Source: a virus
Lineage: Duplodnaviria > Caudoviricetes
Length of the DNA stretch: 62,859 nt
IMG/VR virus record: IMGVR_UViG_3300025389_001457
Span: 1 to 62,859 of that record
Strand: one strand, 5' to 3'
Positions within the stretch are counted from its first letter, which is position 1; each line of letters starts with the position of its first letter. The position numbers and the translations under genes are program-made. The notes under the pieces were generated by a model that ran no database searches, had not been told where the DNA came from, and saw only the letters and a program-made list of their open reading frames with translations. Shown here in pieces: positions 2,602 to 62,701 of the stretch.

Positions 2602-2626
2602 AAGGGGGCTTTTAGCCCCCTTTTTT
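2602..2626. terminator. bidirectional intrinsic terminator
   Basis: AAGGGGGCT-ttt-AGCCCCCTT plus T tract between convergent genes. Confidence 0.8.
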
Positions 2627-3995
2627 ATTTCACATAAAAACCAGGTAGTCCGCTGTTTGGAGCATCGGCATACGAAGTAAATTCAAAGGTTATTCTACCT
2701 GTAGCAAGTTGTCTATTAGGCCAAACAACACTAAAATTTAAACCTTTTTTACTATCTTTAGCAAAAATTTGAATAAAGTTTTGCTGTAATATTTCACGAG
2801 CTAGTGGTTCCCAATTAGGTAGCGCATTATTAATATTGATAGCTGCCTTTAAATCTTTAAGGCAAAGATAATGCATTATGCCTCCAGGCGTTGCAGTTTG
2901 ACTTTTAATTTTAGATATATCATGTTTGCTTAAAAATGTTCTAAATCTTTTAGGCATATCAACTATATTTTTGCGACTATATTTTTTAGAATCCATCCAT
3001 TCTGTTGTAATTAATACTATTTCTTCTCTGGTAAAAGGAGACATTCTAGCTAATTTACCCATACTTTCTGGAGCAACAGCAAGAATATAATTAAAAAGTA
3101 GGAACGGAACCACAAGACTTGCGGTACCGAGTGACTTCTCTGGATTTTGAATAATTTTTAAAAATTTTACTTCTTTTGCAAACTTTCTACTATTAATTAA
3201 ATTACCAGGTATTTTCAAATTTACAAGAGAAGGTGCATTGCCTTTTGATCCACCTTTGCTACTAATATAAATTTCATTACCTGCCGCGTTTTTAAAATAA
3301 CCAATACTATCACCCAATGGCGCATTTTTTTCTCGTGGAAAATAAAGAGAAATACTATTAAAACTTCTAGTGTCCATATGGTCCAAAAATGCATCGGCTG
3401 TTGGAAAATCTGCAATGCCTTTTACTAATGCAAGAACTCCCAAATATTCGCCAGCATAATCTCTGATTGCTGGTTTATATTCTGGTTTAATCGAAACCCA
3501 GCTTGCAGTAGAACCTTGTCTTATATCCTCTGCCAATTTCATTACATCTCTGCCAATTTCAGTGCTTGCAAGAACTTGGTTATTAATAACTTCATCAAAA
3601 ATAGCGGAGGCACGAAATTTTCGATCACGAAAAATATCGCTTGGTTTAATAACAAAACTTTCTTTTGTTTCTGCGTATATATCACCAATAGCAACTTTTT
3701 CAAAAGCTAAATCTGGTGTTTTAAATAATTGACCTAATGACAATGTTTCACCATTAGTGCCAACAATTTTTATCTGATTTGCTTTAGTTTGTGGATTTGT
3801 AAGTAATTCTTTTAATTCTTCGTACTGACTTTTATCAGCAATAAATTCAGTTTTCTGATCTTTTTTTAAAAAAGGACTTCCTATATGAATTTTTTCTAAA
3901 AACCTATCAACTCTCCACGGATGTTTTTTAATTTCTGGCAAACTTAAATTTGCCTCATCTAGTATATTTTCAATTAAAAATTCATTTGCTCTCAT
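2625..3995 (-). CDS. putative virion-packaged protein with PD-(D/E)xK-like nuclease motif
   Basis: Start MRANEFLIENILDEA (CTS-like) overlaps the stop of the upstream gene; PLGDS...YISSKGG resembles a variant PD-(D/E)xK site. Confidence 0.5.
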   Translation of the reverse strand: MRANEFLIENILDEANLSLPEIKKHPWRVDRFLEKIHIGSPFLKKDQKTEFIADKSQYEELKELLTNPQTKANQIKIVGTNGETLSLGQLFKTPDLAFEKVAIGDIYAETKESFVIKPSDIFRDRKFRASAIFDEVINNQVLASTEIGRDVMKLAEDIRQGSTASWVSIKPEYKPAIRDYAGEYLGVLALVKGIADFPTADAFLDHMDTRSFNSISLYFPREKNAPLGDSIGYFKNAAGNEIYISSKGGSKGNAPSLVNLKIPGNLINSRKFAKEVKFLKIIQNPEKSLGTASLVVPFLLFNYILAVAPESMGKLARMSPFTREEIVLITTEWMDSKKYSRKNIVDMPKRFRTFLSKHDISKIKSQTATPGGIMHYLCLKDLKAAININNALPNWEPLAREILQQNFIQIFAKDSKKGLNFSVVWPNRQLATGRITFEFTSYADAPNSGLPGFYVK

Positions 3996-4717
3996 CTTCT
4001 TTCTTCCCAATTTGGGTCATTGCGTATATCAGCTAATATTCTTTGTGCTTGATCTTGCGGCATAGCGCCAAGAATAGCTTCTACACTGCCTAAATCTTTT
4101 CCGCTTGCATTTTGACCTATTAATGTTTTAGCAACCGTATCAATATCATTACTTATAAATTCACCTTTTTTGCCGCTTTCATCACGCTTAAACAAACCTT
4201 GCCATGGACTCCATAGCATACCACGTTGTTTGGCAAGTAGGGTCATAAGCAATATTTTATTCTTACCTTTGTATGGGCTTCCTTGTGGTATGCTATGCAC
4301 ATGAAATTTAGAAATAGTGCTAGCTTGTGGCGTGACCATAATATCAGTTTGCGCTTTTGCACCATCGGGTAGGGGAATAAGGATATGCACATTAATGCCG
4401 CTTTGTGCAGTTTCAAAACCTAATCCACGCAAATAATCTGCAAGTGCTTTGCGAGCAGTTTTTGCATCATTTTGTTTGAACACTTTTTTTACAGATTCTT
4501 CATCTGCCATTACATCAAAGTCGCCACTCATCTTACCAGCAGTTGGTGTTGCGCCACTGCCGACAGGTATAACAGTAATACCTGTTTTGCCAAGCGCCTT
4601 ATTAACCATATCAACTATATTTTTGGCATATTTTTGATCAAATTGTGTAGCAGCAGCAAACATGTTGCCGCCTTCCAACAATAGTTTTGATTCTACAATA
4701 AACTCACGACTGCGCAT
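3992..4717 (-). CDS. Pol-beta-superfamily nucleotidyltransferase-like protein with CTS-like N-terminus
   Basis: MRSREFIVESKLLLEGGN; GSG...SGDFD and QTD acidic triad. Confidence 0.65.
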   Translation of the reverse strand: MRSREFIVESKLLLEGGNMFAAATQFDQKYAKNIVDMVNKALGKTGITVIPVGSGATPTAGKMSGDFDVMADEESVKKVFKQNDAKTARKALADYLRGLGFETAQSGINVHILIPLPDGAKAQTDIMVTPQASTISKFHVHSIPQGSPYKGKNKILLMTLLAKQRGMLWSPWQGLFKRDESGKKGEFISNDIDTVAKTLIGQNASGKDLGSVEAILGAMPQDQAQRILADIRNDPNWEERR

Positions 4718-4732
4718 AGGGTATTTATTGAA

Positions 4733-5359
4733 TTAGTGCTGTGCCTGACTAATTGCTGCGCCAAGTGCTGCACCAATCATAACACCAATAGCAAGTGCGG
4801 CCCCATCATTGCCGCCACCACGATTTGGTTCATAATAACCACGTGGCATTTCACGATGATGACCTCTTTGATACATCATTGCTCTTTGACGTTCCCAATT
4901 TGCTTGGTTCTGCATCTGCATCTGTTGTGCCTGAAATGGCGACATACGCATAAACATGTCATGTGCTTGCGCAGGCGTTGCTTGTGCTAAGCTACTTGCA
5001 ACAGCCAATGCTGCTGCAATCTTAACACTGTTGTTTTTCCAATTACTGCCACCTTTTTTTGCCATTTCAGTTTCAATGGCATCAGCAGCTTCATCACCTT
5101 GTTTAGCACGAACTTGTGCTAATACATTATCAAACTTTTGTGTAATACTTGGTAGGATATTTTTTGCACTACTCTTTACTTTATCAGCAAAGTTTGCAGC
5201 TTTATCTTTTATAGTATCTAAAACGCCTTCATCAAGCTGTTCGCTTTCAACCATTACTCCACGAATCAGTTCTAATACTTCGCTGTCCATGCGATGGTTG
5301 ATTTCAAGTCCTTCAAGGACTAACATTGTATATCTGATATCGTTGTTCATGGTGGGCAA
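4733..5359 (-). CDS. hypothetical membrane-associated protein (internal signal-like segment and C-terminal glycine zipper)
   Basis: QLDEG motif, KIAAALAVASSLAQATPAQA, GAALAIGVMIGAALGAAI. Confidence 0.55.
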   Translation of the reverse strand: MPTMNNDIRYTMLVLEGLEINHRMDSEVLELIRGVMVESEQLDEGVLDTIKDKAANFADKVKSSAKNILPSITQKFDNVLAQVRAKQGDEAADAIETEMAKKGGSNWKNNSVKIAAALAVASSLAQATPAQAHDMFMRMSPFQAQQMQMQNQANWERQRAMMYQRGHHREMPRGYYEPNRGGGNDGAALAIGVMIGAALGAAISQAQH

Positions 5360-17534: not shown

Positions 17535-17589
17535 TATTGATTGACTTTCTCTACAAATATGTTATATTTAAGTCAATAAATATTTGAGC

Positions 17590-25614: not shown

Positions 25615-25629
25615 GTAATAAATATTTCA

Positions 25630-45615: not shown

Positions 45616-47856
45616 ATGGCAAATTCATTTAATAGTAACAGTGACTTAGAAAAAATCGTAAAGTTTGCAAAACAATTTGCAAGCGAAAACAATCATCAAT
45701 ATTTTACCGTAGAGCATTTATTGCTTTCTATGCTACATGAAAAAAGTTTTATTTCTGTGCTAGAAACTATTGGCGTTGATGTTCAACAATTAGTTAAAGA
45801 AGTTGAAGATTATATTTTTGAAAATGTACCAGTTAATACAGCAAACACTGTAGAACCTAAAAAAACACAAATTATTGAACGAGTTTTTAATCGTGCTTTT
45901 ACTCAAGTAATTTTACTTGGTCGCAATACAATTCATATCAGTGATTTATATCTTTCTATTTCTAAAGAAACACATAGTCACGCTGCTTACTTTTTGAACA
46001 AATATGGTGTAGAACCAGAAAAAGTTATTGAAGCATATAACAAAAATAAAAATAAAAAATCAAGTAGTTATGCTACAAATACCTTAGAAGAATACTGCAT
46101 TAATTTAAATGAAAATGCACGTAATGGAAAAATTGAGCAATTAATTGGTCGCGAAAGCGAACTTGCTGATATGACACAAATTCTTGCTCGTAAGAATAAG
46201 TGCAATGTGTTACTTGTCGGTGATGCCGGTGTCGGTAAAACAGCGATTGCAGAAGGTCTTGCTCTTAACATTGTTAATGGCGATGTGCCTAAATTTCTAA
46301 AAAATCATGAAGTTTATAGCTTAAACATTGGTTCGCTATTAGCTGGCACAAAATATCGTGGTGATTTTGAAGAACGCTTACAAGAAATTATGAATGCTGC
46401 TACTGAACTTGGCAACATTATTTTGTTTATTGACGAAGCACATCAGATGCGAGGCGCTGGCAGCGGCAGTAATAGCAGTGTAGATTTTTCCAACATGTTA
46501 AAACCAGCACTTGCTCGTGGTGATTTTAAAGTTATTGCTTCTACTACATGGGAAGAATATACACAACATTTTGAAAAAGACCGTGCGCTTATGCGTCGTT
46601 TTAATCGTGTGAGTGTCGATGAACCTAGTGTTGCCGATACCAAGACTATTCTTCTAGGTATTAAGAGCAGCTATGAAACATTTCATAACGTTAAAATTAC
46701 TGATGCAGCAATTACAGAAGCTGTAGAATTAAGTGCGCGCTATCAAGCAGATAAAAAACTGCCAGATAAAGCTATTGATCTAATAGATAGTGCCGCTGCT
46801 CTTCGCCGCACACAGTCACGTGGCTCTCGTACAATTGACGTTAATCATATTCGTCGTGAATTAAGTCGTATTACTAAAATTCCTGAATCACAATTGGGCG
46901 CAGAAAATACACAAAAGATTATGCCCAACATCGGCGCTGAAATCAAAGCAGTTGTATATAATCAAGATACAGCCGTCGATAAGGTTCTTGATCGTGTATG
47001 GGTATCCCAAGCAGGATTAAAAGCTGATAACAAACCAGTTGGTTCATTCCTGTTCCTTGGACCCACTGGAACAGGTAAAACCGAACTTGCTAAACAATTA
47101 GCTGATCGGTTGAGCATGAAGTTACTGCGCTTTGATATGAGTGAATATCAAGAGCGTCATTCTATCTCACGCCTTATTGGTGCGCCACCAGGCTATGTTG
47201 GTTATGAAGATGCTAACCTTGCTGGTGGTTTGTTGATTAGTGAGATTGCCAAGAATCCACATTGTATTATTCTTTTTGACGAGATTGAAAAAGCACATCC
47301 TGATGTATCACAGGTGTTGCTGCAAGTTATGGACGAAGGTTTCATTACTGGTACCAATGGCAAACGTGCTGATTGCCGCCAATCTATCCTTATCATGACA
47401 AGTAATTTGGGTGCTGCTGATAGCGAACGCAATGTTATTGGATTTGGCGGTGGAACAAATGTGGATGCAGTTGATGCTGCTGTTAAAGAATTCTTCCGTC
47501 CAGAGTTCCGCAATCGTGTAGATGCGATTGTTACATTCAACAAACTTGATAACGTTACAATTCGCAAGGTTGCAGAAAAGTTTATTCGTGATCTAAATGA
47601 ACAATTATTATTAAAGAATACATCCGTATCACTCACTGATGCTGCATGGGATTGGCTGTGTAAAAAAGGCTATACTCCAAGTCTTGGCGCACGACCAATG
47701 CATCGTACAATTCATGAACATATCAAAGTTCCGTTAGCAAAGAAAATACTGTTTGACAAGACAGCAAATCATGCTATTATTAAGGTAGACTTAATTGATG
47801 ATAAGTTAGAATTGGTAGCGCAAGATGACAGAGATAACGGAACTAACCTTAATTGA
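45616..47856 (+). CDS. clpA: ATP-dependent Clp protease ATP-binding subunit ClpA
   Basis: Two AAA modules (GDAGVGKT, GPTGTGKT), KYRGDFEER, PPGYVG, IGF loop. Confidence 0.93.
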   Translation: MANSFNSNSDLEKIVKFAKQFASENNHQYFTVEHLLLSMLHEKSFISVLETIGVDVQQLVKEVEDYIFENVPVNTANTVEPKKTQIIERVFNRAFTQVILLGRNTIHISDLYLSISKETHSHAAYFLNKYGVEPEKVIEAYNKNKNKKSSSYATNTLEEYCINLNENARNGKIEQLIGRESELADMTQILARKNKCNVLLVGDAGVGKTAIAEGLALNIVNGDVPKFLKNHEVYSLNIGSLLAGTKYRGDFEERLQEIMNAATELGNIILFIDEAHQMRGAGSGSNSSVDFSNMLKPALARGDFKVIASTTWEEYTQHFEKDRALMRRFNRVSVDEPSVADTKTILLGIKSSYETFHNVKITDAAITEAVELSARYQADKKLPDKAIDLIDSAAALRRTQSRGSRTIDVNHIRRELSRITKIPESQLGAENTQKIMPNIGAEIKAVVYNQDTAVDKVLDRVWVSQAGLKADNKPVGSFLFLGPTGTGKTELAKQLADRLSMKLLRFDMSEYQERHSISRLIGAPPGYVGYEDANLAGGLLISEIAKNPHCIILFDEIEKAHPDVSQVLLQVMDEGFITGTNGKRADCRQSILIMTSNLGAADSERNVIGFGGGTNVDAVDAAVKEFFRPEFRNRVDAIVTFNKLDNVTIRKVAEKFIRDLNEQLLLKNTSVSLTDAAWDWLCKKGYTPSLGARPMHRTIHEHIKVPLAKKILFDKTANHAIIKVDLIDDKLELVAQDDRDNGTNLN

Positions 47857-50310: not shown

Positions 50311-50790
50311 ATGTCTGATGATTTAGAAACAGTAGAATTTAAAGTTCAATTAAGCAGTTCATGGCATAATGATCCGCCTAAATTTGAAATACTCATCAAT
50401 GATGATATTGTTGAATCAGGCGAAGTTTCTGAATTAGAAAGCGATAGCAATGTAAAAACTATCGCTTTTTCCAGAGATTTACCAGAAGGCGACCACACTT
50501 TAAAAATCAGACTTGTTAATAAAAAACCCAAACATACAGAAGTAGATGATAGTGGTAACATTATTTCTGATCAACTATTACATCTTAAAGAAATTGAACT
50601 TGACGAGATTGAATTAGAATGGTTGGCATATTTCAACGGTAAATTTTATAAACAAATTGGTGCCAAAAGCGGCAAACCAATTTACGAAGATGAACCACTG
50701 CCAGAAAAGTTTAATGTAATTGGTTTAAATGGTGAGTGGCGTCTTGGTTTTAGTGTGCCCACATATATGTGGTTCCTAGAAAACCTATAA
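50311..50790 (+). CDS. hypothetical protein (paralog of 60056)
   Basis: P...I..N, L.I...NK, NG.W...F..P.Y.W. Confidence 0.65.
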   Translation: MSDDLETVEFKVQLSSSWHNDPPKFEILINDDIVESGEVSELESDSNVKTIAFSRDLPEGDHTLKIRLVNKKPKHTEVDDSGNIISDQLLHLKEIELDEIELEWLAYFNGKFYKQIGAKSGKPIYEDEPLPEKFNVIGLNGEWRLGFSVPTYMWFLENL

Positions 50791-50797
50791 ATATTTG

Positions 50798-51925
50798 ATG
50801 TTCATTAATCAGATTATCAGCGAAGCGCCTAAAGTTGGTCGTGCTTTTCAGCACGTAGAAGACCTTGTTCTCATTGAAGGTAGCATGGGCGCTGAAAAAG
50901 CTATTAATCGACTCGCCCAAATTGCAAGCAATCCACAAACCGTGCGTTGGAAATGGGATGGCAAACCTCAAGTCTATTGGGGACGTGAGCCAGATGGTAA
51001 ATTTATTATGGTTGGTCACAATGGTTGGCTAAAACCAGATGGCAGCGGTAAAAGCCAAAGCCCACAAGAATTAGTACGTTTTATCATGAGCACTGGTAAA
51101 GTAGAAGCGGGCAAAGAAGACGAACGCATGCGGTTTGCCAACGAATACGCAAGTTTATGGTCATTGTTTGAAGCTGCAACTCCACAAGATTTTCGTGGCT
51201 ATGTATATGGTGATTTGTTGTTTATGCGCAGACCACCACTAGAAAATAATGCATATACTTTTACACCAAATAATGTAACATATAGCATACCTGCTTCAAC
51301 AGAACTTGGGCAACGAATATCAAAAGCAACTGCAGCAGTCGTAGGACATGCATACTTTCCACAATTTGGCATGGGCGATGACCAACAACAACCTATTGAT
51401 GATTTTACACCATTTAATAAGTCACAAGGCTTGATTGTATTGGGTCCGCGATATGCACAGCAGCCTGTTAAGATTGACACTAAGAAATTGCAAGATTTAC
51501 AAAAATATGTTGCAGCAAATAAAAGCGCAATAGATAATTTCTTGAACGATGAGCGCCTCGCTGCTATGAAAATGGCAAGCTTTAAGGGTGTGCTTTATAA
51601 TTTTAATAATCAAATGGCAAGAGTTGGCAGAACAAGTGATCTTGCAAGCGAATTTACAAATTGGATAAGCAGCGGTAGCAAACAAAATGCAACAATGCAG
51701 CAGAAGATAAAGGATTGGATTGCGCAAAACCAAAAAGGGTTTATTGCTACATTTGCAGTTCTTGAGAACCTACGCAATATTAAAAATGCAATCATTGATC
51801 AATTAGATAGTGAAGGCGGCGATATACAACAAACTACCAAGGGACAAAAGGGCGGAGAAGGTTATGTCAATTATGGCGAACCTAACATTAAACTTGTGCC
51901 TCGTCATCGCTGGACACCAAATTAA
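50798..51925 (+). CDS. ligase-like nucleotidyltransferase with CTS-like N-terminus
   Basis: MFINQIISEA; HVEDL; KWDG (motif I-like), GDLLF, EGYV...K (motif IV/V-like). Confidence 0.6.
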   Translation: MFINQIISEAPKVGRAFQHVEDLVLIEGSMGAEKAINRLAQIASNPQTVRWKWDGKPQVYWGREPDGKFIMVGHNGWLKPDGSGKSQSPQELVRFIMSTGKVEAGKEDERMRFANEYASLWSLFEAATPQDFRGYVYGDLLFMRRPPLENNAYTFTPNNVTYSIPASTELGQRISKATAAVVGHAYFPQFGMGDDQQQPIDDFTPFNKSQGLIVLGPRYAQQPVKIDTKKLQDLQKYVAANKSAIDNFLNDERLAAMKMASFKGVLYNFNNQMARVGRTSDLASEFTNWISSGSKQNATMQQKIKDWIAQNQKGFIATFAVLENLRNIKNAIIDQLDSEGGDIQQTTKGQKGGEGYVNYGEPNIKLVPRHRWTPN

Positions 51926-51939: not shown

Positions 51940-51960
51940 CCAGATAAATATTTTATCTGG
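51940..51960 (+). promoter_or_regulatory. hairpin containing late promoter TAAATA
   Basis: CCAGATAAA-tat-TTTATCTGG, 8 nt before the ATG. Confidence 0.6.
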
Positions 51961-51968: not shown

Positions 51969-54900
51969 ATGACCCTAAGCCACCGCACTATCTTTAATGA
52001 AGCACCAAATCCTCATGTTGCATTTGCATTTGGGCGCATGAATCCGCCGCATTTTGGTCACGAAGGGCTTATTAAAACCCTACAAAGTGTAGCAAAAAAA
52101 GGCAGTTGGGCGTTATTTCTAAGTAAAAGCCAAGATGCCAAAAAGAATCCACTTAACTATGAACAAAAAGTTAAATGGGTTAAAGCACTTTATCCACAAA
52201 CACAAGGACATCTCGTTGAAGAACCATCAATCAAAACATTCCTACAAGCAGCCGCATATCTTTATGACAAAGGTTTCCGCAGTGCCACTTTTGTGGCTGG
52301 CGAAGACGACATGGCAAGTATGCGACCAGTATTGGAACAATACAACGGCAAGCAAGTAACACATGGTTTCTATCATTTTGAGCCGCTTTCTTTTATGGAA
52401 AGCCCACGATTAACCTCCGCGACAAATGCACGTGAAGCAGCCAAAAGCGGCGATCCAGAAGCATTTGAACGTGCTACACGTGTGCCACCAAATATCACAG
52501 TAGATGGCAAGACACTTATGCAAGCAGTTCGCATTGGTATGGGACTTGGTGAAAGTGTTGAAGAAAGTATCATCACTGAAAGTTTATCAGTAGAACAACT
52601 TGCTCACATAAGTGATAAAGCACTTGATGACGCTTATCATTATGGGTTATCTACACCTAACAATAACTTTGGTTGGTTGGCAAATATTGAAAGTGCCACT
52701 GCTGCAAAGCGTATGATTGATAGTGGCATTACAGATGTAGAAGCCATTGCCAACGCTATCCACGATGGTTGGAATAAAACTGCTATGGCTGATTATATGG
52801 GCAAGTTGCAGCTAGATACGCCAACCATTCCCGATAAGAAAAAGAAGCGTTATGCTCTTGCCCAACAAACTTATGCACAGTTGCCAGAAGTAGAAAAAGA
52901 AAAAGACCGTGTAGTTGCTCGTGCTATGTTGAAGGCAATGGGTATCGTTACCGAAGCACCAGGCATTGGTGGCGATTGGGGTGATAATCCTAAACTAGTC
53001 AAACGTGGTCGCAAACCATATGAACCCAATAAGGATGATACCTATTACGGCTCTGCCCACGGCACAGACCTTGATTTATATGGTTTGCCAAAATATGAAT
53101 TAGATGAAGACCTAACTCCTGACCAATGGGCAGAGTTGCGCATTACTGATCCAAAAGCCTATATGGGTAATAAGGATTATACTAATCGTCGTTGGTGGAC
53201 TCTGCAGTTTAAGAAGGCTCGTGCTGCTGCCCGTGATCAAGGTGCTAATCGTTTTGAGTTTCCGCCAGGTTCTAAGAACAGTTATATGGTTGCTCCTGAC
53301 TTGGCAAATGAAAATTTAGATGAAGCCGCAGAAAAATCAACCAAAGCCGAAGCCAAGTATCAGGCAATGCCTCGCAATGGTCAGCGTTGTGATTACTGCA
53401 CTATGTGGCGTCCTCCGCATGGTTGTTCGGCTGTTAGTGGCAAGATTGCGGCAAATGGTTGGTGTTCATATTACAAGCGTAGTCATCGTAAAGATTTAGA
53501 TGAAACTATTGAACCAAATAGCAATATGTTAGCAATAGCACAACGTCTCGAAGATTATGCTAATGAACATATTCCACACGAAGACGATGGTTTTGGTGAT
53601 TTTATGTATCACGCAGAACTTATTCGCAAAGGTCATCTTGACATACATCGTGAAGATATGGTGAAGGTTCAACCACGCTATCTTCCGATTATGAAATCTA
53701 TCACAAAGAATGAATTAGTATCAGAATCACAACTTGACGAAGCAGCATCACCAGTGTTGTTCCATTATACAGGCAGTGTGGGTGCAGCATTAAACATTCT
53801 TAAAAACAATGAGTTTATGTTGAGCATTTCTACTGGTAGTGTAGAAGACCAATATGCACCACGTGGTTATAACTATTTCTTATCCACAACACGCAGCAAA
53901 GTAGGTGGATATCACGAGTTTACTGGCGGCACTGCTGTTATGTTCAACCTTGATGGCAATTGGTTCAATCGTCGCTATCCAGTTAAAGCAATTGACTATT
54001 GGGCAGGATTTGATAAGCAAAAGCACAGCGAAAGCGAAGACCGTGTATTCTCACGTGAGCCAACTATACCAGCAGATGCGATTACAGCAGTTCATATCTT
54101 ACTTAAAGAAGCAGGTGAGTTTGCAAGTCCAACTACTCGCCAGTTGATGATTGTAGCAAAGAAGCGTGGATTACCAACCTATCTTTACAGTGATGAAAAT
54201 GCGTGGAAATTACAGGACACCAAGCGAGCAATACCAGTAAGCAAAGCCCAAGATTTAATTCGTGGTCAAAAGAAGACTGGTTATATAAGCACCTTTAATG
54301 GTAAGAAATATCTTGCTCCTTGGTTAGAACTTATCTTTAAGAAGAAACGCAGTGAGTTATCCAAAGAAGCAAATAAACTGCGTTATAGTTTAACCTATTG
54401 GAGCGGTGGTCAGTTTGCTGATGACCTTGGGTTACGTAATGAAATTACCAATGCTCGCAAACCAGGCAACAGTGGCTATGAAGCAGCAACTAAAATTATT
54501 GCAGCAATGCGCAAAATCGGTGCCAATGATGTAAAAGGTTTGCTGACATTCTTGCACAAGAAGTGGGATGCAGAAGCACAACAGCCACTTAAAAGCGACA
54601 ATGATGCACAACGAGCAATTGCTAATATTCGTGCCGATAGTGCTAAAAAAGAAAGTGTTGAAGAAGCACTTGATCCAAATGAAACACACGGTTGGATTTT
54701 GCCTAATCGCAAAGTTGAATATGTTACGAAGGAAGAACATCTGGGATGGCTTTATAGTAAAGACATTGATGGATATGAAGAAGCATTTAAACTTGGATAT
54801 GTGCGTTTTGCAAAAGCAACCGTTTCGTTTTTTGTTCAAGGTTTCTTGCCTGACCTTAAAAAGATGTATCGTGTATATGCACAAACTGCACTTGGATTTA

Positions 54901-55169
54901 AGCATATTGCAGTTGATATAATAGTTGATGAGCGAGGCAGAATTGATAACCAAATTTCATTAGACTACGAAATGCCAAAAGACAAAGCAAAGTTTATAAA
55001 GAAATTTGGACCGCAACAAAATGAACACGCTGGTTCTATCATAGGAACTGTTGGTGGCGGCAATGATTATCCTGACCGTCAAGTAGCTACATTTCCGTGG
55101 GACCGTGAGGTTGAACCAGATGAAAATGGCGCAAAAGTACAGTATCTGAATAAACAACGCAAACTTTAA
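51969..55169 (+). CDS. multidomain polyprotein: HIGH-type nucleotidyltransferase, RyR-like, HiPIP-like, ART-like and other modules
   Basis: FGRMNPPHFGH; IHDGW..Y.QLPE.EKEKDR; YQ.....QRC..C......C..V.G.I...GWC; FHYT..STT..ESE; modules joined by [ILV]xE linkers. Confidence 0.75.
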   Translation: MTLSHRTIFNEAPNPHVAFAFGRMNPPHFGHEGLIKTLQSVAKKGSWALFLSKSQDAKKNPLNYEQKVKWVKALYPQTQGHLVEEPSIKTFLQAAAYLYDKGFRSATFVAGEDDMASMRPVLEQYNGKQVTHGFYHFEPLSFMESPRLTSATNAREAAKSGDPEAFERATRVPPNITVDGKTLMQAVRIGMGLGESVEESIITESLSVEQLAHISDKALDDAYHYGLSTPNNNFGWLANIESATAAKRMIDSGITDVEAIANAIHDGWNKTAMADYMGKLQLDTPTIPDKKKKRYALAQQTYAQLPEVEKEKDRVVARAMLKAMGIVTEAPGIGGDWGDNPKLVKRGRKPYEPNKDDTYYGSAHGTDLDLYGLPKYELDEDLTPDQWAELRITDPKAYMGNKDYTNRRWWTLQFKKARAAARDQGANRFEFPPGSKNSYMVAPDLANENLDEAAEKSTKAEAKYQAMPRNGQRCDYCTMWRPPHGCSAVSGKIAANGWCSYYKRSHRKDLDETIEPNSNMLAIAQRLEDYANEHIPHEDDGFGDFMYHAELIRKGHLDIHREDMVKVQPRYLPIMKSITKNELVSESQLDEAASPVLFHYTGSVGAALNILKNNEFMLSISTGSVEDQYAPRGYNYFLSTTRSKVGGYHEFTGGTAVMFNLDGNWFNRRYPVKAIDYWAGFDKQKHSESEDRVFSREPTIPADAITAVHILLKEAGEFASPTTRQLMIVAKKRGLPTYLYSDENAWKLQDTKRAIPVSKAQDLIRGQKKTGYISTFNGKKYLAPWLELIFKKKRSELSKEANKLRYSLTYWSGGQFADDLGLRNEITNARKPGNSGYEAATKIIAAMRKIGANDVKGLLTFLHKKWDAEAQQPLKSDNDAQRAIANIRADSAKKESVEEALDPNETHGWILPNRKVEYVTKEEHLGWLYSKDIDGYEEAFKLGYVRFAKATVSFFVQGFLPDLKKMYRVYAQTALGFKHIAVDIIVDERGRIDNQISLDYEMPKDKAKFIKKFGPQQNEHAGSIIGTVGGGNDYPDRQVATFPWDREVEPDENGAKVQYLNKQRKL

Positions 55170-55186
55170 AAACGGTAAATATATAA

Positions 55187-58100
55187 ATGAGCGACAAAGA
55201 CCTGATACTTGAAGAAATCCTAAATGAAGTGAATATGAGTCCGTCAGCCCTTCGTGCGGCAGTGGCAAAGATTCCCAATGCCAAGGCAGGTCTTGAATTT
55301 GAACTTATCGTCACTAATCTTGAAGAAGAGGAAGATGATGATTATGATCCATATGAGGACTTTGAATCCGAACCAGACTATGACCAAGATGAGCGTATCT
55401 CTACCGCAAGTTTCAACGCACTAGCACAAGATGTTATGCAGTTCTTTAATGGTGATCACAATAGTCGCCGTGATGTAAACCGTGCGATTGATTTGATGCG
55501 TGAAGCGTGGAGTGATTATATTGAAGGTCCGCTATGGGATAATTATACTAGCGCCCGTATTCAAGATTTTATTGACCAACGCTATGGTCGTGATTATGCT
55601 AATCAAGCAGAGTTATTTAAAGAAATTGATACGATTGATCCATATGAAGAGTTTAAATCACGATATTTCCAAACTTGGGTAGATAATCTTGAAGATGATG
55701 ATAACATAGATGATTATCTTGAACAATTTTTAGAAGACAACTATGGTGGTCAATATATGAGTAATTTGGCAAGTGATAGCAGTCTTGGGCTATCTTGGCC
55801 AGTTTGGACTGAACCTGATTATTATGACCGCAGAACTCGCTCTACTGTTGATGTAGGTGATTTCCGCCGTGCTGTTGGTATGAAGACTATCAAGAGCGGC
55901 TCTTATCACGGTATTACAAAGCCAAATGATGCTTATGTTATTGAACCAGATAGCAGCTTACAACCCACTCGTGGTAAAGGTGGCGAAGGTTTAGAGTTTG
56001 TATCACCACCGCTAGATATTCCAACAATGATTGACCAAATCAATAAGGTCAAGGCGTGGGCAAAAGATGGCAATGCTTATACCAATGATAAAACTGGTCT
56101 GCATATGAACATCTCTATACTAGGTTATAAGTTAGATAAACTTGATTATGTTAAACTTGCGTTATTTTTAGGCGACAAGTATATTCTTGAAAAGTTTGGT
56201 CGTCTTGGCAACTCTTATGCTCGCAGTGCATTTGAACAGATTGCTTCATTCATTAAACAAAATCCAGAAAAGGCTAATAAAGCCGTTGATGCGATGCGTC
56301 AGAATTTAAACCTAGTAGCATCCAAACTTATTCATAGCGGTTATACTAACAAGTTTACAAGTATCAATACAAAAGATAATCGTGTAGAGTTCCGTTCTCC
56401 AGGCGGCAACTGGCTTGATATGGATACTGATGAAGTAGTGAATACGCTGCTTCGTGTTGTATATGCAATGAACATTGCTCTTGACCCAGAAGCAGAACGC
56501 AAAGAGTATCAAAAGAAATTTTCAAAGCTACTTACTGCTGATAAGAAAGATGAAACTGATACTATCAAGTATTTCACACAATTTGCAACAGGTAATATGC
56601 CTCGTTCTGCACTTATAAGTTTTGTTAAAACAGCGCAAAGCAAGCGTGATTTTGCAAAGAAAGCAAAAGCAGAAAAACCAAATGATCCGTATGCTAAACA
56701 ACAGGGCGATGATACACCGTATGTTGATTATACAGGTATGGCTGGCATTACATTCCAAATTATTAGTCGTGTAACTGGCGAAGAATTAGAATCATTCGTA
56801 GTATCACCAAGACTAACTTATAGTGATGTATATGATATTGCCACACGTAAAGTGCGAGCAAGTGGTCGTTCATTTGACCTAGTAGCGTTAAAAGATACTC
56901 GTGACGGTGAAGTAAGTGATATTCTAACACGTGAGCCAATACACAACACTGTATCCCCATCAACACCATCCATACAACCAATGTATGTTATCCGCAGAGC
57001 AAACACACAACAGGCTGTATCACAGTTTCGTGCGCCAGATAATGAGCAAGCACGTGATATTGCTACACGTATGGCACGTGAATATGGTTATCGTGATAGT
57101 GATTGGTTTTTATCCCTTGCAAGTGATGATACAAATAGACCAATACCTGGTGCGGGTACACAAGCATTACAATTGCCCAGTGGTGGTGCAGCAACCTATG
57201 TTGTTGTAAACCGTAGCGATGGCACAGAATTATTAACAACACAAGCACAAAGTTTTTACGCAGCAACGCAAGCAGCCCAAAGATTTGCGCAAGAACGTAG
57301 TCTACCATTAGCAAGTATTGCTATAAGATCACCAAACAACAATAATCTATGGGATACGCAAGGTCAACTAATTCCTCAACCAAGCCCACAACCAGAACAA
57401 CCTCGCCAATATACACAAGCAGAAATTGATCGTGGTTATGATATTACGGGCAATGCTATTCCAGCAAACGCAACAGCAACATCTTCTAACATTACTGCAA
57501 CCGAAGGTGTAAAATACCAAATCATTGCCAGAGGTGGCGTAGTCCACGAGTTCCGTGCAGCATCACCTCGTGGTGCTGAACGCTATGCTGAATCTTGGTC
57601 AAATGAACATCTTGGTGATGAGAGTTATGAAGTTCAACTTGCTCCACGCAGCGAAAGTATTGAAGAAAGTATCCTAAATGAAATCAATATGAGTCCTACA
57701 TCTCTTGAAAAATTTGCCGATACACCATTTGCCAAGAGTATGAAAGTTGGTTTTGAAACTGAAATGTATATTCCTGGTCTTGGCGGCGAAGAAGGCGAAG
57801 AGGAAGAAGAAGAGGATATGGATGCCAACGAAGAGTTTCCAAGCAGTGCATCCTATCGTGATCGTCAGCGTGATGTTATGAACTTCTTTAGTGGCAATTA
57901 CAATACTCGCCGTGATGTCGAAAGTGCGTTAGATGCGTTATATGAAGCATTTAGTGAATATCAGTATGAAACCTATGATAATGAATTTGAAGGCACTGAT
58001 GATTACAATGACGCAGTTCAAGAAGAATTAGGCGATACGCCTATGGGCGAAGCAAGTGAGCGAGAACTTGATGATGCCAAAGATAATGTTCGCACCGCTT

Positions 58101-60013
58101 GGATAGAAAACAACGAAGAATATACTTGGGGTAGATTCATAAGTCGCAATGGCATTGATGATATGTATGACTTTATGCGTTGGGTAAATCGCAATACTCG
58201 TGAATCGCTATCTTGGCCATATTATACATTTAGCAGCAGTAGAGAAGAACCAACAACAGATATTGGCGATGTTGTTGATGATTTTAGACGCAATACTGGT
58301 TATAAGGCACGAGCAAGCAGTGGTTATCATGGAGCAGATCGTGATGAAACCACTTGGATATTTGAACCAGATAGTTCGCTAGATAGCCCAAGCAACGATG
58401 GCGACGGTGGCATTGAACTTGTATCACCACCTATGAACCTAGAAGATGGTTTGGCTGCGTTAGAGAATGTATTCAGTTGGGCAAAGAGCAATGATTATTA
58501 TACTAACCGCACAACTGGTTTCCATATTGGCGTGTCTATTCCACTACAAACAATGGAAAACATTGACCATCTTAAAGTAATCATGTTGCTTGGCGATGAA
58601 TATGTATTAAAAGCATTTGGTCGTGCTGGCTCACGTTGGACCAAGAGTAGTTTTGACCAAGCCAAACGTGAAGTGCGTGGCAGAGCAGCCCGAAAGAATG
58701 TGCCAGCAATCCTTGACAAGATGCGTGGTGGATTGCAAGATATTGCTAAACAAGAAATCAACAAACTGTTGGTTCCTCGTGGCGACCGCTATGTTAGCGT
58801 AAACATCAAGCCAAATTATATTGAGTTCCGCAGTGCTGGTGGCAATTACTTTGAGCAATATGAAGAAATCCGCAAGACCATGTTGCGTTATGTTCGTGTT
58901 ATGGCAGCAGCGGCTGATCCAGAAGATGCAAGCAGAGAATATCAAAAGAAACTGTATAAGTTTGTAAGTGCTGGTATAGGTGAAAAAGACAATACTATGC
59001 AGCTATTCGCCAAGTATACTGCTGGCGCTATTGACAAAGAACAACTTGTTAAAGAATTACGCACTGCCCAAGAGCGTCGTAAGCCTGTTGCACCACTTGG
59101 GTCTGGTCCAGTTGATGGTTTCCTAGAAGATGAAAACGGTGATCAAGTTGTAAAGATCAAGGGAACAAACCCATATGAAATGATTGAACTTGGTGTGAAG
59201 TTTGCTAACACTCGTCAGATACCATTGGGTGATACAAACCTACGTTATCCTGGTTACAGTATGGTTCGTGTGCAATATTATTCTACACACCAAACTGAAA
59301 AGGATAGTGTAACACTGGTTTATATACCTGCTGTTGATTTATACAATACGTATAGTAGTGAAATAACAAAAACCGCTGTTCCTGTTGCAGAAAAACATTG
59401 GGGTTTAAGTAAATTACCAATAGAACGTTTTGCTGTGAGAGTGCTAGACGAGTATTCGCTACAATATATGCGTGATGAAATGATGCGCATTACGTCTCGT
59501 GGTGAAGATCGTGCGCCAACACCACCACAAGCACAAGCACAGGCACAAGCCGCACCAGATAGCGATGATGAGGGCAGACAAGTTAGATATATCTTGAAAT
59601 ATACATCTAACGGCAACGAACTTACTAACTTTTCTACAAGTAGTCCAAGTCAAGCAAAAATATATAGTAATAATTTGGTAAGAAATAACAGTCAACTTCG
59701 CTGGGGCGGAACATTTGGCGGTGTTCGTGGTGTTGTATTGTTTAGAGTTGATCCAGATACCCAAGAACAAGAATTGTTCTACATGGGTCCAGGCGAGGCT
59801 ATTGTAAATCAACCTGCTGCTGAACCTGCGCCAGCATCTAGACCTAACGTTGCAAATCCAGGTGGTCGTGGAACTTATGCTTTATTTGTTCAAAATGGGA
59901 CGCAGATATCCGAAGAATTAGAATTTAATTCGTATCAAGATGCGCTGCGCCATTTCACACCGCTGGCGAATAGTTCAGGTTTCACAGGTTGGAGCGTAAA
60001 GCAACTATCATAA
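55187..60013 (+). CDS. tandem double amidoligase (COOH-NH2 ligase-like) with small repeated domains
   Basis: Twice: G.E.E, EPDSSL, G.E.VSPP, TG.H, EFRS.GG; ILNE[VI]NMSP opens each half. Confidence 0.8.
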   Translation: MSDKDLILEEILNEVNMSPSALRAAVAKIPNAKAGLEFELIVTNLEEEEDDDYDPYEDFESEPDYDQDERISTASFNALAQDVMQFFNGDHNSRRDVNRAIDLMREAWSDYIEGPLWDNYTSARIQDFIDQRYGRDYANQAELFKEIDTIDPYEEFKSRYFQTWVDNLEDDDNIDDYLEQFLEDNYGGQYMSNLASDSSLGLSWPVWTEPDYYDRRTRSTVDVGDFRRAVGMKTIKSGSYHGITKPNDAYVIEPDSSLQPTRGKGGEGLEFVSPPLDIPTMIDQINKVKAWAKDGNAYTNDKTGLHMNISILGYKLDKLDYVKLALFLGDKYILEKFGRLGNSYARSAFEQIASFIKQNPEKANKAVDAMRQNLNLVASKLIHSGYTNKFTSINTKDNRVEFRSPGGNWLDMDTDEVVNTLLRVVYAMNIALDPEAERKEYQKKFSKLLTADKKDETDTIKYFTQFATGNMPRSALISFVKTAQSKRDFAKKAKAEKPNDPYAKQQGDDTPYVDYTGMAGITFQIISRVTGEELESFVVSPRLTYSDVYDIATRKVRASGRSFDLVALKDTRDGEVSDILTREPIHNTVSPSTPSIQPMYVIRRANTQQAVSQFRAPDNEQARDIATRMAREYGYRDSDWFLSLASDDTNRPIPGAGTQALQLPSGGAATYVVVNRSDGTELLTTQAQSFYAATQAAQRFAQERSLPLASIAIRSPNNNNLWDTQGQLIPQPSPQPEQPRQYTQAEIDRGYDITGNAIPANATATSSNITATEGVKYQIIARGGVVHEFRAASPRGAERYAESWSNEHLGDESYEVQLAPRSESIEESILNEINMSPTSLEKFADTPFAKSMKVGFETEMYIPGLGGEEGEEEEEEDMDANEEFPSSASYRDRQRDVMNFFSGNYNTRRDVESALDALYEAFSEYQYETYDNEFEGTDDYNDAVQEELGDTPMGEASERELDDAKDNVRTAWIENNEEYTWGRFISRNGIDDMYDFMRWVNRNTRESLSWPYYTFSSSREEPTTDIGDVVDDFRRNTGYKARASSGYHGADRDETTWIFEPDSSLDSPSNDGDGGIELVSPPMNLEDGLAALENVFSWAKSNDYYTNRTTGFHIGVSIPLQTMENIDHLKVIMLLGDEYVLKAFGRAGSRWTKSSFDQAKREVRGRAARKNVPAILDKMRGGLQDIAKQEINKLLVPRGDRYVSVNIKPNYIEFRSAGGNYFEQYEEIRKTMLRYVRVMAAAADPEDASREYQKKLYKFVSAGIGEKDNTMQLFAKYTAGAIDKEQLVKELRTAQERRKPVAPLGSGPVDGFLEDENGDQVVKIKGTNPYEMIELGVKFANTRQIPLGDTNLRYPGYSMVRVQYYSTHQTEKDSVTLVYIPAVDLYNTYSSEITKTAVPVAEKHWGLSKLPIERFAVRVLDEYSLQYMRDEMMRITSRGEDRAPTPPQAQAQAQAAPDSDDEGRQVRYILKYTSNGNELTNFSTSSPSQAKIYSNNLVRNNSQLRWGGTFGGVRGVVLFRVDPDTQEQELFYMGPGEAIVNQPAAEPAPASRPNVANPGGRGTYALFVQNGTQISEELEFNSYQDALRHFTPLANSSGFTGWSVKQLS

Positions 60014-60622: not shown

Positions 60623-62108
60623 TATTTTAGTTTTATCAATTCCAAGAATAGAACCACATAGACCGCCGTTGGGTGTATCTATCTTAGGAACTGTATGTGA
60701 AAATGCTGGTCATAATGTTACAGTAGCAGATTTAAATATAAAATTTTTCAATCATTGTAAAACACACGGAGTTGATTACTTTAATTTTGATGACATATGG
60801 GATTCATATCGTGAAGAAACGCTTGCAGAATCAAAATTTATTGACCAATTTATTGTACAATTTATAAATGATTATAATCTTAATTCTTATGATTATATTA
60901 TGCTTAGTATTTTTGGCATCAGTAATCATATTTTTGCTGAAAAATTATTAGAAAAAATAGCACCAAATCGTAATTATAAAATATTAGTGGGTGGAAGCGG
61001 TGCTTTTATTTCTCTAAAAAATTCAAATAGTATAGTTGTTGATAATTTTAAAAGCAGAAATTTAATAGATGATTATATTCGTGGCGAATGCGAAGAGTCA
61101 GTGCTGCAATATTTGCAGCATGGCAATGGCAGTGGAATTAATAACAGCAATTTCAAACAAATTTCTAATCTTGACTCTTTGCCTATACTCAGTTACAAAT
61201 TTTTAAATCTTGATGAATATGATTATTTGAATAATAAAAAGAGTGTTTATATAGAAGGCAGTCGTGGTTGTGTCCGTAGCTGTACATACTGTGATGTTGT
61301 AGCTTATTGGCCAAAATATAGATTTCGTAGCGGAAAGCATATTGCAAGCGAAATTATAAAACATTACGAAACACATGGCGTAACTGATTTTTATTTTACT
61401 GATAGTTTAGTAAATGGCAGTCTAAAAGCATTTTCAGAAATGTGTAATGTGCTTGCCAATCATAATTTTACTGATAAAATTAGTTGGAGCGGACAATTTA
61501 TTTTTAGAGATCGACGTAGTGTGCAGCCTGAACACTTTGAAATGATTGCCAAAGCTGGTGGTGATACTTTTTTTGTTGGAATTGAAACAGGCAGTGATCG
61601 CGTTCGCAAGGCAATGGGTAAAAATTTTTCTAATGATGATATTGAATATCAATTAGAACAATTTCATAAAAATAAACTTAAAACAACTTTCTTAATGTTT
61701 CCTGGTTATGTTACAGAAACCATTGAGGATCATAATGATACACTTAATATGTTACAAAGATGGCAAAAGTATGTTGCTAACGGTGTCATCAATGGTTTAG
61801 AACTTGGTTCGCCACTTGTTTTCCTAGAAAATAGTCCGCTTGCTCACATGATAGATGAATATAAAATTAAATTTTTAGAACTTGATAATATTTCAAACAA
61901 AAGATTTTGGATAAGAGAAGATGATCCAGAATATAATTTTATTACTCGTGTCGAGCGACAACTTGAGTTATATGAAGAAGCTGTAAAATATAACTGGCCG
62001 ATTTGGAGATTTACAAGTAGAGCAGAATCTCTACTAAATTCTGTAAAAACATATTATAAAAACATCGAAAATAACGCAGAATATAAAAAATTACCTGTGA
62101 TAAATTAA
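60615..62108 (+). CDS. B12-binding-type radical SAM protein
   Basis: PPLG, GG, GE.E, SRGCVRSCTYC, FTDSLVNG, GIETGS, GY.TET.ED. Confidence 0.88.
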   Translation: MTNILVLSIPRIEPHRPPLGVSILGTVCENAGHNVTVADLNIKFFNHCKTHGVDYFNFDDIWDSYREETLAESKFIDQFIVQFINDYNLNSYDYIMLSIFGISNHIFAEKLLEKIAPNRNYKILVGGSGAFISLKNSNSIVVDNFKSRNLIDDYIRGECEESVLQYLQHGNGSGINNSNFKQISNLDSLPILSYKFLNLDEYDYLNNKKSVYIEGSRGCVRSCTYCDVVAYWPKYRFRSGKHIASEIIKHYETHGVTDFYFTDSLVNGSLKAFSEMCNVLANHNFTDKISWSGQFIFRDRRSVQPEHFEMIAKAGGDTFFVGIETGSDRVRKAMGKNFSNDDIEYQLEQFHKNKLKTTFLMFPGYVTETIEDHNDTLNMLQRWQKYVANGVINGLELGSPLVFLENSPLAHMIDEYKIKFLELDNISNKRFWIREDDPEYNFITRVERQLELYEEAVKYNWPIWRFTSRAESLLNSVKTYYKNIENNAEYKKLPVIN

Positions 62109-62170
62109 ACTTGACTTTGTATTCAACTATGTTATAATAAAATATGACAAAATTACGGATAAATAATTTC

Positions 62171-62701
62171 ATGCGTATAGATGAAGTCGTAAAGACTGAA
62201 TTCAAGGTCTATTTGGATATGGATGGCGTACTTGCTGATTTTTTTGGCGAGTGGGCTAGACTTGACGGAAAAGACCATTATAAAGATATTGATAATCCAG
62301 AAGCAAAGCTACAACTTGTGCGAGATCATCCTACATTTTGGATAGACCTTCCCTTACTTCCTCATGCAAGGGAACTTGTTCGCACTGTCAAAGAAACATT
62401 TGGTGAATATTACATTTGTTCAACTCCACTTGCTGGCGATACTCGTAGCGAAAGTGGCAAACGTGCTTGGATTAGCATGCATTTTAGCGATATGTTGCCA
62501 AGTGGAATTGAATTAACACACAATAAAGCACAGTTTGCAACAAATGAACGTGGCGTTTCAAACATTCTTGTTGATGATTATGGTAAAAATATAGCTGCTT
62601 GGCAAATGGCTGGCGGTATTGGTATAAAATACGAAGATCAAAATTTCTCCCAAGTTAAAAAAACCTTAATTAGGTTTGCTAAAATGGGAGCACTAGCATG
62701 A
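62171..62701 (+). CDS. 5'(3')-deoxyribonucleotidase (HAD) with CTS-like N-terminus
   Basis: MRIDEVVKTE; YLDMDGVLADF, K..W, ILVDD..KN...W...GG.GI. Confidence 0.85.
   Translation: MRIDEVVKTEFKVYLDMDGVLADFFGEWARLDGKDHYKDIDNPEAKLQLVRDHPTFWIDLPLLPHARELVRTVKETFGEYYICSTPLAGDTRSESGKRAWISMHFSDMLPSGIELTHNKAQFATNERGVSNILVDDYGKNIAAWQMAGGIGIKYEDQNFSQVKKTLIRFAKMGALA

Follow-up and report, generated by a model that had tools for sequence, protein, structure and literature searches.

The window, a stretch of 62,859 nt from the metagenomic virus record IMGVR_UViG_3300025389_001457 (Caudoviricetes), carries about 10 genes for unrelated proteins that share a kind of N-terminus: a leader of 8–15 residues, read from the first ATG and ending in Glu. 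This leader exists, is enriched at N-termini, is conserved and portable, forms an add-on to otherwise complete domains, and fits the cleavage rule of the phage T4 protease gp21. A sequence-only reading of the window had quoted nine such N-termini as resembling the capsid-targeting sequence (CTS) of T4 internal proteins (IPs), and all nine were found at the starts it gave.

Base composition is 33%–41% G+C over the 62.9 kb, and two window stretches searched against cultured phages gave no near-identity match. Related metagenomic viral contigs are many. We used the related complete genome G001 (338,435 bp, with terminal repeats) as a whole-genome stand-in for the window lineage; 68 of the 90 called window proteins have a tblastn match in it, nearly all within one collinear block (234–301 kb). 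The major capsid protein (MCP) of G001 is of the T4 type (Pfam Gp23, 7.7e-99) and is 68.6% identical to that of Pseudomonas phage PA5oct, the closest cultured relative. The synteny, the Gp23-type MCP and the likeness to PA5oct together place the window in an uncultured jumbo phage related to T4, the RaK2 group, and PA5oct. The leader-bearing (tagged) genes and candidates are listed below, with a slash at each predicted cut.

2625–3995, minus strand: 456-aa protein; 9-residue leader MRANEFLIE/N, codons 3969–3995; its start overlaps the stop of the following gene in this list (ATGA)
3992–4717, minus strand: 241-aa nucleotidyltransferase (NTase)-like protein, putatively of the Pol-beta type; propeptide MRSREFIVESKLLLE/GG at 4673–4717 (MRSREFIVES..LLE/GG)
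4733–5350, minus strand: 205-aa protein, an uncertain member; several [VL]xE sites in the first 45 residues (MNNDIRYTMLVLE/G .. QLDE/G)
17590–18048, plus strand: gamma-glutamyl cyclotransferase, GGCT (GGACT/AIG2); leader MKMNEIILE/A at 17590–17616
26606–27181, plus strand: 191-aa protein with a T4-CTS-like N-terminus; 10-residue MQEIYENIAE/N at 26606–26635
41749–42273, plus strand: 174-aa protein; short leader MSRNQISE/G at 41749–41772; overlaps the end of gene 41199–41771
50798–51925, plus strand: DUF6267 protein with KWDG and EGYV motifs; leader MFINQIISE/A at 50798–50824
51969–55169, plus strand: 1066-aa multidomain protein; N-terminus MTLSHRTIFNE/A at 51969–52001
55187–60013, plus strand: 1608-aa protein; starts MSDKDLILEEILNE/V at 55187–55228 (earlier quoted as ILEEILNE)
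62171–62701, plus strand: NT5C/HAD 5'-deoxynucleotidase; MRIDEVVKTE/F at 62171–62200, the first half of the leader only

Presence, conservation and portability of the leader

We scanned all six frames, independently of gene calls, with a strict rule built on the four strongest N-termini (M-x3-[EDQN]-[FILVM]-[ILVF]-x-E from the ATG); gene starts otherwise come from a heuristic caller. The window gave six matches, five of them the first ATG of open reading frames (ORFs) of 152–1608 aa (at 3995, 4717, 17590, 50798, and 55187). G001 gave 13, of which 11 start ORFs of 117–450 aa and two lie in ORFs of 12 and 22 aa. The DNA form of the rule was compared with the same pattern read backwards: it matched eight times versus zero in G001, three versus one in PA5oct, and two versus three in phage CBB, with 0 matches in Vibrio phage 2.275.O. 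Canonical leaders number eight in the G001 genome and only two in that of PA5oct. Because the DNA pattern exceeds its backwards control in G001 and hardly does so in PA5oct, CBB, or the Vibrio phage, the leader expansion is specific to the clade of G001 and the window.

The rule relaxed to [LI]xE[AGS], with Glu anywhere from residue 7 to 14, was matched by 9/81 N-termini versus 36/2110 internal windows (1.7%) in the window (p about 1e-5) and by 17/387 versus 150/11567 (1.3%) in G001 (p about 1e-5), an N-terminal enrichment of three to six times. It added a candidate outside the earlier list, the 191-aa protein at 26606–27181, whose start MQ[ED]IYENIAEN is kept in the window, G001, and a second related record (G002). 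L/I-X-E closes the leader in seven of the 10 window candidates, the exceptions being 51969 (Phe at P3), 62171 (Lys), and 4733 (Val). Carriers number about 10 in the 63-kb window and 16–20 in the 338 kb of G001.

The leader is conserved among orthologs of individual carriers. It is found on the NTase in 9/9 loci, as MRS[RK]EF[IL][TSV]ES or MLIKDIITES; L14, E15, G16, and G17 are invariant in the alignment, and the G001 ortholog has lost the first Glu and retains the invariant L-E-G-G. Among the DUF6267 orthologs listed, 25/25 begin M[FLQ]I[NST]xI[ILV]xE/A, down to 55% identity. M-R-[YFA]-x-[DE]-[FIL]-..-[LI]-x-E-[AGS] starts 114 of 120 metagenomic homologs of the 456-aa protein among the matches listed (30%–47% identity); in these 114 the leader has 10 residues in 81 cases, nine in 17, and another length in 16, with Leu or Ile at P3 in 95 and Ala, Gly, or Ser at P1' in 97. 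Since P1 Glu and P3 Ile/Leu are fixed and P2 alone varies in DUF6267, and since P3, P1', and length are kept in the 456-aa family, selection acts on the leader peptide.

GGCT has the leader on 29/32 homologs, and 83 of the 120 NT5C homologs listed begin M-[KR..]-x-x-[EDQ]-hydrophobic, with 14 beginning directly at the domain. The 1066-aa protein shows ..NE/A or ..KE/A in nine of 11 distinct ortholog N-termini; of the other two, one begins where the cut is predicted, with MANNPH, and the second departs from the pattern. Orthologs of the 174-aa protein begin MNKHNQLNE/G (G001) and MQRPSLISE/G (G002), and PA5oct gp296 has no such site. For the 205-aa protein the ORF spans 4733–5359, but translation more likely begins from the ATG at 5350, which is preceded by GGAG; the N-terminus is kept in 5/5 related loci that hold the gene, and hydrophobic segments lie mid-protein and at the C-terminus.

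In five families the leader is an add-on: homologs without it begin at the predicted cut or close to it. Nine distant NTase homologs begin MGG[NK]VF, so that their start falls precisely on the N-terminus predicted for the mature protein. The close cytidylyltransferase ortholog that begins MANNPH can be set against ..NE/APNPH in the window. The three most distant GGCT homologs begin at the YYFAYG core, and an untagged GGCT paralog within the window (25630–26067) begins MADSILYFSYG. The NT5C of G001 has no leader and begins MAYQKFRVYLDMDG. DUF6267 and cytidylyltransferase pairs of cyanophages have the same gene order and N-termini about nine residues shorter. DUF6267 was matched in 56 T4-like cyanophage records, and the neighbor pair was present in both of the two inspected; its conservation in T4-like cyanophages suggests that the two proteins may act together.

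The leader is also portable between unrelated proteins, its carriers being GGACT, NT5C, DUF6267, the Pol-beta-like NTase, the cytidylyltransferase, and orphan proteins. Downstream of the NTase, at least two unrelated cargo families occur among relatives with the same type of leader, MRANEFLIE/N in the window and MRA[FS][EQ]F[LI].E/AKG[VI]FGRK elsewhere.

Late-promoter-like sites and head-assembly genes

TAAATA is depleted in the window, with 29 copies on the plus strand and 12 on the minus strand versus about 55–67 expected per strand; even so, 18 of the 90 called genes have a copy no more than 35 nt upstream. The T4 late promoter is TATAAATA, and its transcripts begin a few bases downstream. 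Given this likeness and the depletion elsewhere in the window, TAAATA probably functions as a late promoter. Leaders are linked to such late-promoter-like sites: Seven of the nine quoted genes have a TAAATA within 30 nt upstream, in keeping with the earlier statement that most follow one, and the genes at 3995 and 41749 instead overlap the 3' end of the gene before them, which bears one. Every tagged gene in the window and G001 has its own late-type TAAATA or lies directly behind a gene that has one.

TAAATA-to-ATG spacing falls into two classes. In one, of about 10–30 nt and often with a Shine-Dalgarno-like GGAG or AAGGA, we found tail and other genes. In the other the spacing is 4–7 nt, with no room for a Shine-Dalgarno sequence; it comprises six genes, five of them tagged (NTase, DUF6267, 1608-aa protein, NT5C, and GGCT) and the sixth the untagged GGCT paralog, with a 5-nt spacing. 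If transcription starts as at T4 late promoters, this class suggests leaderless late mRNAs.

50788–50793, plus strand: TAAATA, 4 nt before the DUF6267 ATG, no Shine-Dalgarno room
17577–17582, 55176–55181, and 62160–62165, plus strand; 4722–4727, minus strand; 25619–25624 region: TAAATA in the same abutting layout
51942–51958, plus strand: palindrome AGATAAATATTTTATCT, around the TAAATA that precedes the 1066-aa gene, once in the window

An extended form of the palindrome, CAGATAAATATTTTATCTGG, recurs in eight of 11 distinct related loci; two differ at the first base (GAT) and one differs. It may act as an operator or form a hairpin that covers the promoter. Early-type promoters were taken as TTGAC../GTTATAWT. 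The strict leader was found at 0/7 genes with such a promoter in the window and 0/24 in G001, compared with 4/17 and 6/85 at TAAATA genes. The trend agrees with an enrichment at late genes, but it is not significant.

For T4, PMC9026906 gives the gp21 site as L/I-X-E, cut behind the Glu and originally observed as a Glu-Ala bond, and describes CTS/IP propeptides as 10–19 residues long, with targeting in the N-terminal part (residues 4 and 7) and processing at residues 8 and 10. The CTS is MKTYQEFIAE (PMC8442874), and PMC3012670 presents T-even internal proteins as diverse, with the CTS alone conserved. As a positive control, a 10-codon DNA pattern matched T4 three times, at ipII and ipIII (both MKTYQEFIAE/A) and at ORF 61.1, and a 9-codon pattern gave 0 matches in T4. 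The resemblance of the window leaders to the CTS was borne out by this sequence as read from ipII and ipIII, as was their ending in a gp21-type site, L/I-X-E followed by Ala, Gly, or Ser. The 456-aa family conserves R2, Y/F/A3, E/D5, and F/I/L6, an aromatic-x-x-aromatic spacing like that of Y4 and F7 in T4, shifted by one. T4 ORF 61.1 itself (NC_000866 18966–19130, 54 aa, adjoining the primase gene and annotated as hypothetical) begins MKTFKEFIKE, a near copy of the IPII/IPIII CTS.

G001 has a head module in T4 order: portal, small core protein (74 aa), a 285-aa protein, protease, scaffold, and MCP. The 285-aa protein begins MRSQYEQLIE, the protease MNNLLIE/N, the scaffold MFEALKPLLE/S, and the MCP MSQELIE/S. 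Peptidase_S77 (PF03420) matched at 90.3 bits each in G001 and a third related record, G003, with no match in G002, which is 37% complete. The small protein after the portal begins MKINDIITE/G in PA5oct, MKLVELFE/A in the Vibrio phage, and MLDEIFE/A in CBB; the cargo leaders thus reproduce the way in which a conserved core protein begins.

We read the virion status of PA5oct proteins from the "ESI-MS/MS" notes (mass spectrometry, MS) of its GenBank record (MK797984.1). The small core protein, gp150, was detected in virions. Five uncharacterized PA5oct proteins have tag-like N-termini, and three of them were detected by MS (gp150, gp237, and gp261), against a background of 93 of 461 coding regions (PMC7318152). 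The cytidylyltransferase gp307 has an N-terminal extension without Glu and was not detected. The same notes mark ribonucleotide reductase, thymidylate synthase, GTP cyclohydrolase, QueD, FtsH, DNA ligase, ClpP, MazG, and RNase H; these enzymes reflect either a contaminated preparation or genuine enzyme packaging in a relative without the leader expansion.

Proposed loading into the phage head

We propose, with a probability of roughly 60%, that these N-termini are propeptides of the T4-CTS type and that the loading system has been much expanded in this clade. Late in infection, unrelated proteins would be made with a common leader of 8–15 residues, M-[RK]-x-x-[ED]-[FIL]-(0–6 residues)-[LI]-x-E followed by Ala, Gly, or Ser. 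The first half of the leader would dock the protein on the prohead scaffolding core, and a phage serine protease of the gp21 type would cut after the Glu. The mature protein would then stay in the head with the DNA and would probably be ejected into the next host cell. A giant cytidylyltransferase-HiPIP-amidoligase protein would be loaded by its N-terminal leader and perhaps also split between modules, where [LI]xE sites are conserved. Docking, packaging, cleavage, retention, and injection are steps that we infer, and injection is less certain than loading.

The proposal is a variant of a known T4 mechanism, with an enzymatic and very large predicted cargo. As in T4, a leader of about 10 residues stands at the N-terminus of unrelated late proteins and ends in [IL]-x-E followed by Ala, Gly, or Ser, with hydrophobic or aromatic positions three residues apart in its first half. 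The relative G001 has a gp21-type Peptidase_S77 protease in the gene order 20-67-68-21-22-23, and at the same locus different relatives carry different cargo behind a retained leader, as PMC3012670 reports for T-even internal proteins. In contrast to the three small basic IPs of T4, there are about 10 carriers in the window and 16–20 in G001, and they include recognizable enzymes as well as proteins of 119–180 kDa (320 kDa when fused). Several clade genes also abut their promoter without an mRNA leader, unlike those of T4, and the clade system is known from genes alone.

Other systems are similar in part. Polyvalent proteins of phages and conjugative elements (Iyer, Aravind, and co-workers, as cited in PMC7824862) are likewise very large multienzyme proteins proposed to enter with the DNA in an antidefense role. 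The combination of a HIGH-type NTase, HiPIP, and a twice-repeated Amidoligase_2 module did not match that description, and loading by a T4-type leader with cutting at [LI]xE module borders is what we suppose for the clade proteins. In phiKZ, 201phi2-1, and SPN3US, many head proteins lose propeptides by cleavage after Glu through a gp21-related protease, and some of these proteins are ejected (PMC9026906); phiKZ-like phages differ in having an S/A-X-E motif, long propeptides, and no shared short leader, and they belong to another phage group, in which T4-type MCP identity is lacking at this level. PA5oct has the same head module and the virion-detected gp150 (MKINDIITE/G), but only two canonical leaders versus eight in G001, and its gp307 extension lacks the Glu. 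We found no report of such leader sets in jumbo T4-related or metagenomic phages in the literature searched, of which we saw parts and from which most subscription journals fell out of scope.

Several observations weigh against the propeptide proposal. The leader differs from the T4 CTS in length (mostly nine residues, not 10), in having Arg rather than Lys at position 2, and in register, which is shifted by one. The protease was found in relatives only (two of three records searched), the window being without a head module, and the small core protein of G001 has Asn in place of the expected Glu. PA5oct gp271 and gp382 have good leaders and were not detected by MS in virions, and the PA5oct virion list is noisy, with unlikely virion proteins present. 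With so few early-promoter genes, the early/late contrast does not reach significance. LxEGG of the NTase also occurs in many untagged homologs (MILNEGGNVF), so its leader Glu may belong to the fold. The membership of the list is also weaker in places than the sequence-only reading had it: The leader of the 1608-aa protein is internal in G001 (..LITEELLNE/V within a 2845-aa protein), QLDE/G is one of several [VL]xE sites, and NT5C retains just the first half of the leader, its G001 ortholog beginning MAYQKFRVYLDMDG without one. Two of the nine listed leaders are doubtful.

The leader might also target the prohead core while its carriers are scaffold or core parts, or actors within the head or in assembly (on packaged DNA or head proteins, for example), that are later degraded, expelled, or idle in the next cell. 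Most T4 core proteins that have L/I-X-E sites are fragmented and leave the head, according to PMC9026906; here, the N-terminal pattern is common to the small and the 285-aa core proteins, many tagged G001 proteins are small orphans, and the several sites within 45 residues of the 205-aa protein (4733–5350) are reminiscent of a scaffold substrate. We nevertheless consider this explanation rather unlikely: Complete catalytic domains with a single N-terminal site resemble T4 IPs and Alt, which undergo a single cut and are retained (PMC9026906 and PMC8442874), and [LI]xE[AGSNV] sites are sparse in the giant proteins (six in 1066 aa and three in 1608 aa). Three further explanations are less likely than this one. 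It is improbable that the N-terminus is constrained as RNA for translation of leaderless late mRNAs and not as a peptide signal. That five of the six genes with a 4- to 7-nt spacing are tagged, none with Shine-Dalgarno room, would fit such a constraint, but codons vary (CGC/AGA for Arg, GAG/GAA, TTT/ATT/ATA) while residues are kept, and Glu at 9–10 and P3 Ile/Leu persist across homologs of 30%–47% identity. Moreover, tagged genes without an abutting promoter exist (3995, 41749, 26606, and 51969), and the untagged GGCT paralog at 25630 has the same 5-nt spacing.

Another machine could read the leader, for instance a phage Clp-type unfoldase acting in timed degradation, unfolding, or localization. 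The window has a ClpA-like gene (45616–47856; PHROG 4871, 1.5e-249) and DnaJ, PA5oct is annotated with ClpX, ClpP, and ClpS, and Iyer et al. 2021 suggest (PMC7824862) that such ATPases could translocate unfolded proteins or aid virion assembly. This seems quite improbable, as PA5oct and the Vibrio phage have Clp genes and almost no leaders, and the leader ends in the gp21 rule and is shared with head-core proteins. We know of no Clp degron that matches it. Least credible of all is chance, or paralogy of the carriers, with no common signal. A loose [LI]xE is indeed common (about 7% of internal 8-residue windows), but the strict motif is nearly confined to ORF starts, its carriers have unrelated Pfam domains, and the backwards pattern found nothing in G001 where the real one found eight.

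If the leaders work as in T4, a ten-residue motif would predict, from sequence, the capsid-packaged proteins of a large group of uncultured giant phages. It would then nominate first-minute effectors (nucleotidyltransferases, a nucleotidase, a nuclease-like protein, and peptide-bond enzymes), a list that most phages do not have. CTS-based loading would extend from small T-even internal proteins to enzymes of 120–320 kDa, and the clade would offer a natural leader for packing foreign proteins into jumbo-phage heads. A broader proposal is tentative, and we doubt it more than we believe it: a general loading system in a widespread clade, in which one portable leader, often on leaderless late mRNAs, packs a changing, pre-made arsenal that enters with the DNA and acts before phage transcription. 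That arsenal would consist of the restriction-endonuclease-like protein, the Pol-beta NTase, the 5'-nucleotidase, GGCT, a GNAT-like protein, a mega-enzyme, and a leader-plus-Tat-like protein. The mega-enzyme would be the 320-kDa Fe-S/nucleotidyltransferase/amidoligase protein, which the prohead protease would divide into its modules. In this way the phage could modify nucleotides, peptides, or the envelope of the host ahead of its own transcription.

Cargo identities and neighboring genes

Pfam profile matches were judged against curated cut-offs. They confirmed three of the enzyme identities proposed from sequence: GGCT (PF06094, 1e-15, 58.8 bits vs. a cut-off of 22.8, residues 17–124), the nucleotidase NT5C (PF06941, 4.9e-8, 33.5 bits vs. 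24.8, with the HAD motif LDMDGVL), and an amidoligase in the 1608-aa protein (Amidoligase_2, PF12224, 5.2e-11, 43.3 bits vs. 22, in two matched stretches, the best at residues 1050–1148). A BLASTP comparison with G001 showed the 1608-aa protein to be two related modules, an internal duplication of which Pfam sees Amidoligase_2 in the second only. The G001 counterparts of the 1066- and 1608-aa proteins are fused into a single 2845-aa protein beginning MMTIINSTLKE/A. Conserved [LI]xE sites follow the cytidylyltransferase domain, stand at the gene junction, and lie between the modules of the 1608-aa protein, an arrangement that fits polyprotein cutting and equally fits a simple structural repeat.

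The 1066-aa protein has an N-terminal domain like a HIGH-type cytidylyltransferase, a HiPIP domain, and a large remainder. Its proposed identity as a HIGH NTase is favored by PHROG 3041 ("cytidyltransferase," 9.4e-36) and a PPHFGH motif of the HxGH type, while the Pfam match (PF01467, 17.9 bits) falls below the cut-off of 21. The HiPIP [4Fe-4S] domain occupies residues 455–503 (nt 53331–53477; PDB PioC, 1.1e-7), and the region also matches NCBIfam iron oxidase Iro (2.1e-8, 34.4 bits, below the cut-off of 100). For a phage protein that may be packaged, an electron-transfer domain is unusual. The gene at 27861–28208 encodes an IscA-like Fe-S assembly protein (PF01521).

The NTase has invariant G53 S54, D66 F67 D68, and D125 in nine orthologs. 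This GS..DxD..D arrangement resembles hG[GS]-x9-13-D-h-[DE] plus a third acidic residue, which we take to be the Pol-beta superfamily signature. Together with an Atlas lead to NTP_transf_2 (0.95), it speaks for the Pol-beta assignment, against which stands the absence of a Pfam match. The 456-aa protein, earlier called nuclease-like, has an Atlas lead to HaeIII/HinP1I/MspI-type endonucleases (0.89–0.91) but no match in Pfam, PHROG, NCBIfam, or PADLOC; it is possibly a variant PD-(D/E)xK nuclease. Neither protein had a tblastn match in cultured phages.

The DUF6267 protein matches PF19782 (6.3e-29), with KWDG and EGYV invariant, a lead toward the ligase and capping-enzyme motifs (KxDG for motif I). 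Its description as ligase-like did not hold up: hhalign against the Rnl1-like ligase of the window gave a probability of 0.1%, and a PDB search gave no match. PDB sequence searches were likewise of no use for the NTase and the 1608-aa protein. The suggested ART-like member was not recovered either, as no ART family was matched by any candidate in Pfam, PHROGs, NCBIfam, or PADLOC; NCBIfam and PADLOC gave nothing on the candidates beyond the HiPIP/Iro match. The 174-aa protein belongs to PHROG 13138 ("virion structural protein," 9.9e-18). No family match was found for the 205-aa protein (Pfam, PHROG, NCBIfam) or the 191-aa protein (Pfam, NCBIfam).

Ten tagged G001 proteins gave just a weak GNAT match, DUF6934/DUF5872, and a subthreshold Tat-signal match, most being without a known family. 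The characterization of the cargo as mostly nucleotide- and peptide-modifying enzymes was thus overstated, correct for several window proteins but not for most G001 carriers; the cargo looks like a mix of enzymes and orphans. The subthreshold match (Pfam TAT_signal, 19.8 bits vs. a cut-off of 22.7) is in the G001 gene at 297068–297964, the positional counterpart of 4733–5350, which begins MRISEIIVE/A followed by a twin-arginine-like signal, SRRGFLKGLASIAAST. A head-loading leader before an export signal would imply injection followed by periplasmic export; alternatively, the leader would be the n-region of a signal peptide.

The NT5C gene has a second possible ATG at 62144, right after a sigma-70-like TTGACT-17-TATAAT, and the ATG at 62171 comes right after TAAATA. 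Homologs favor 62171 as the common start. Early and late NT5C transcripts might yield untagged-context and tagged forms.

Beyond the carriers, the window encodes a T4-type clamp loader, the ClpA-like ATPase, a giant baseplate-wedge-like protein, PhoH, DnaJ, a Cpn10-like protein, MazG, the Fe-S assembly protein, an Rnl1-type RNA ligase, a C-methyltransferase, and a radical-SAM protein. IF-1 is encoded at 27645–27860 (PF01176, 8.7e-21), and five tRNA genes lie elsewhere in the window. Finally, a DNA/RNA nonspecific endonuclease at 24740–25573 (PF01223, 4.4e-41) has an N-terminal signal peptide, MKKILVVLLALLVPTLAHA, and TAAATA upstream, suggesting that it is probably a secreted or periplasmic late enzyme.

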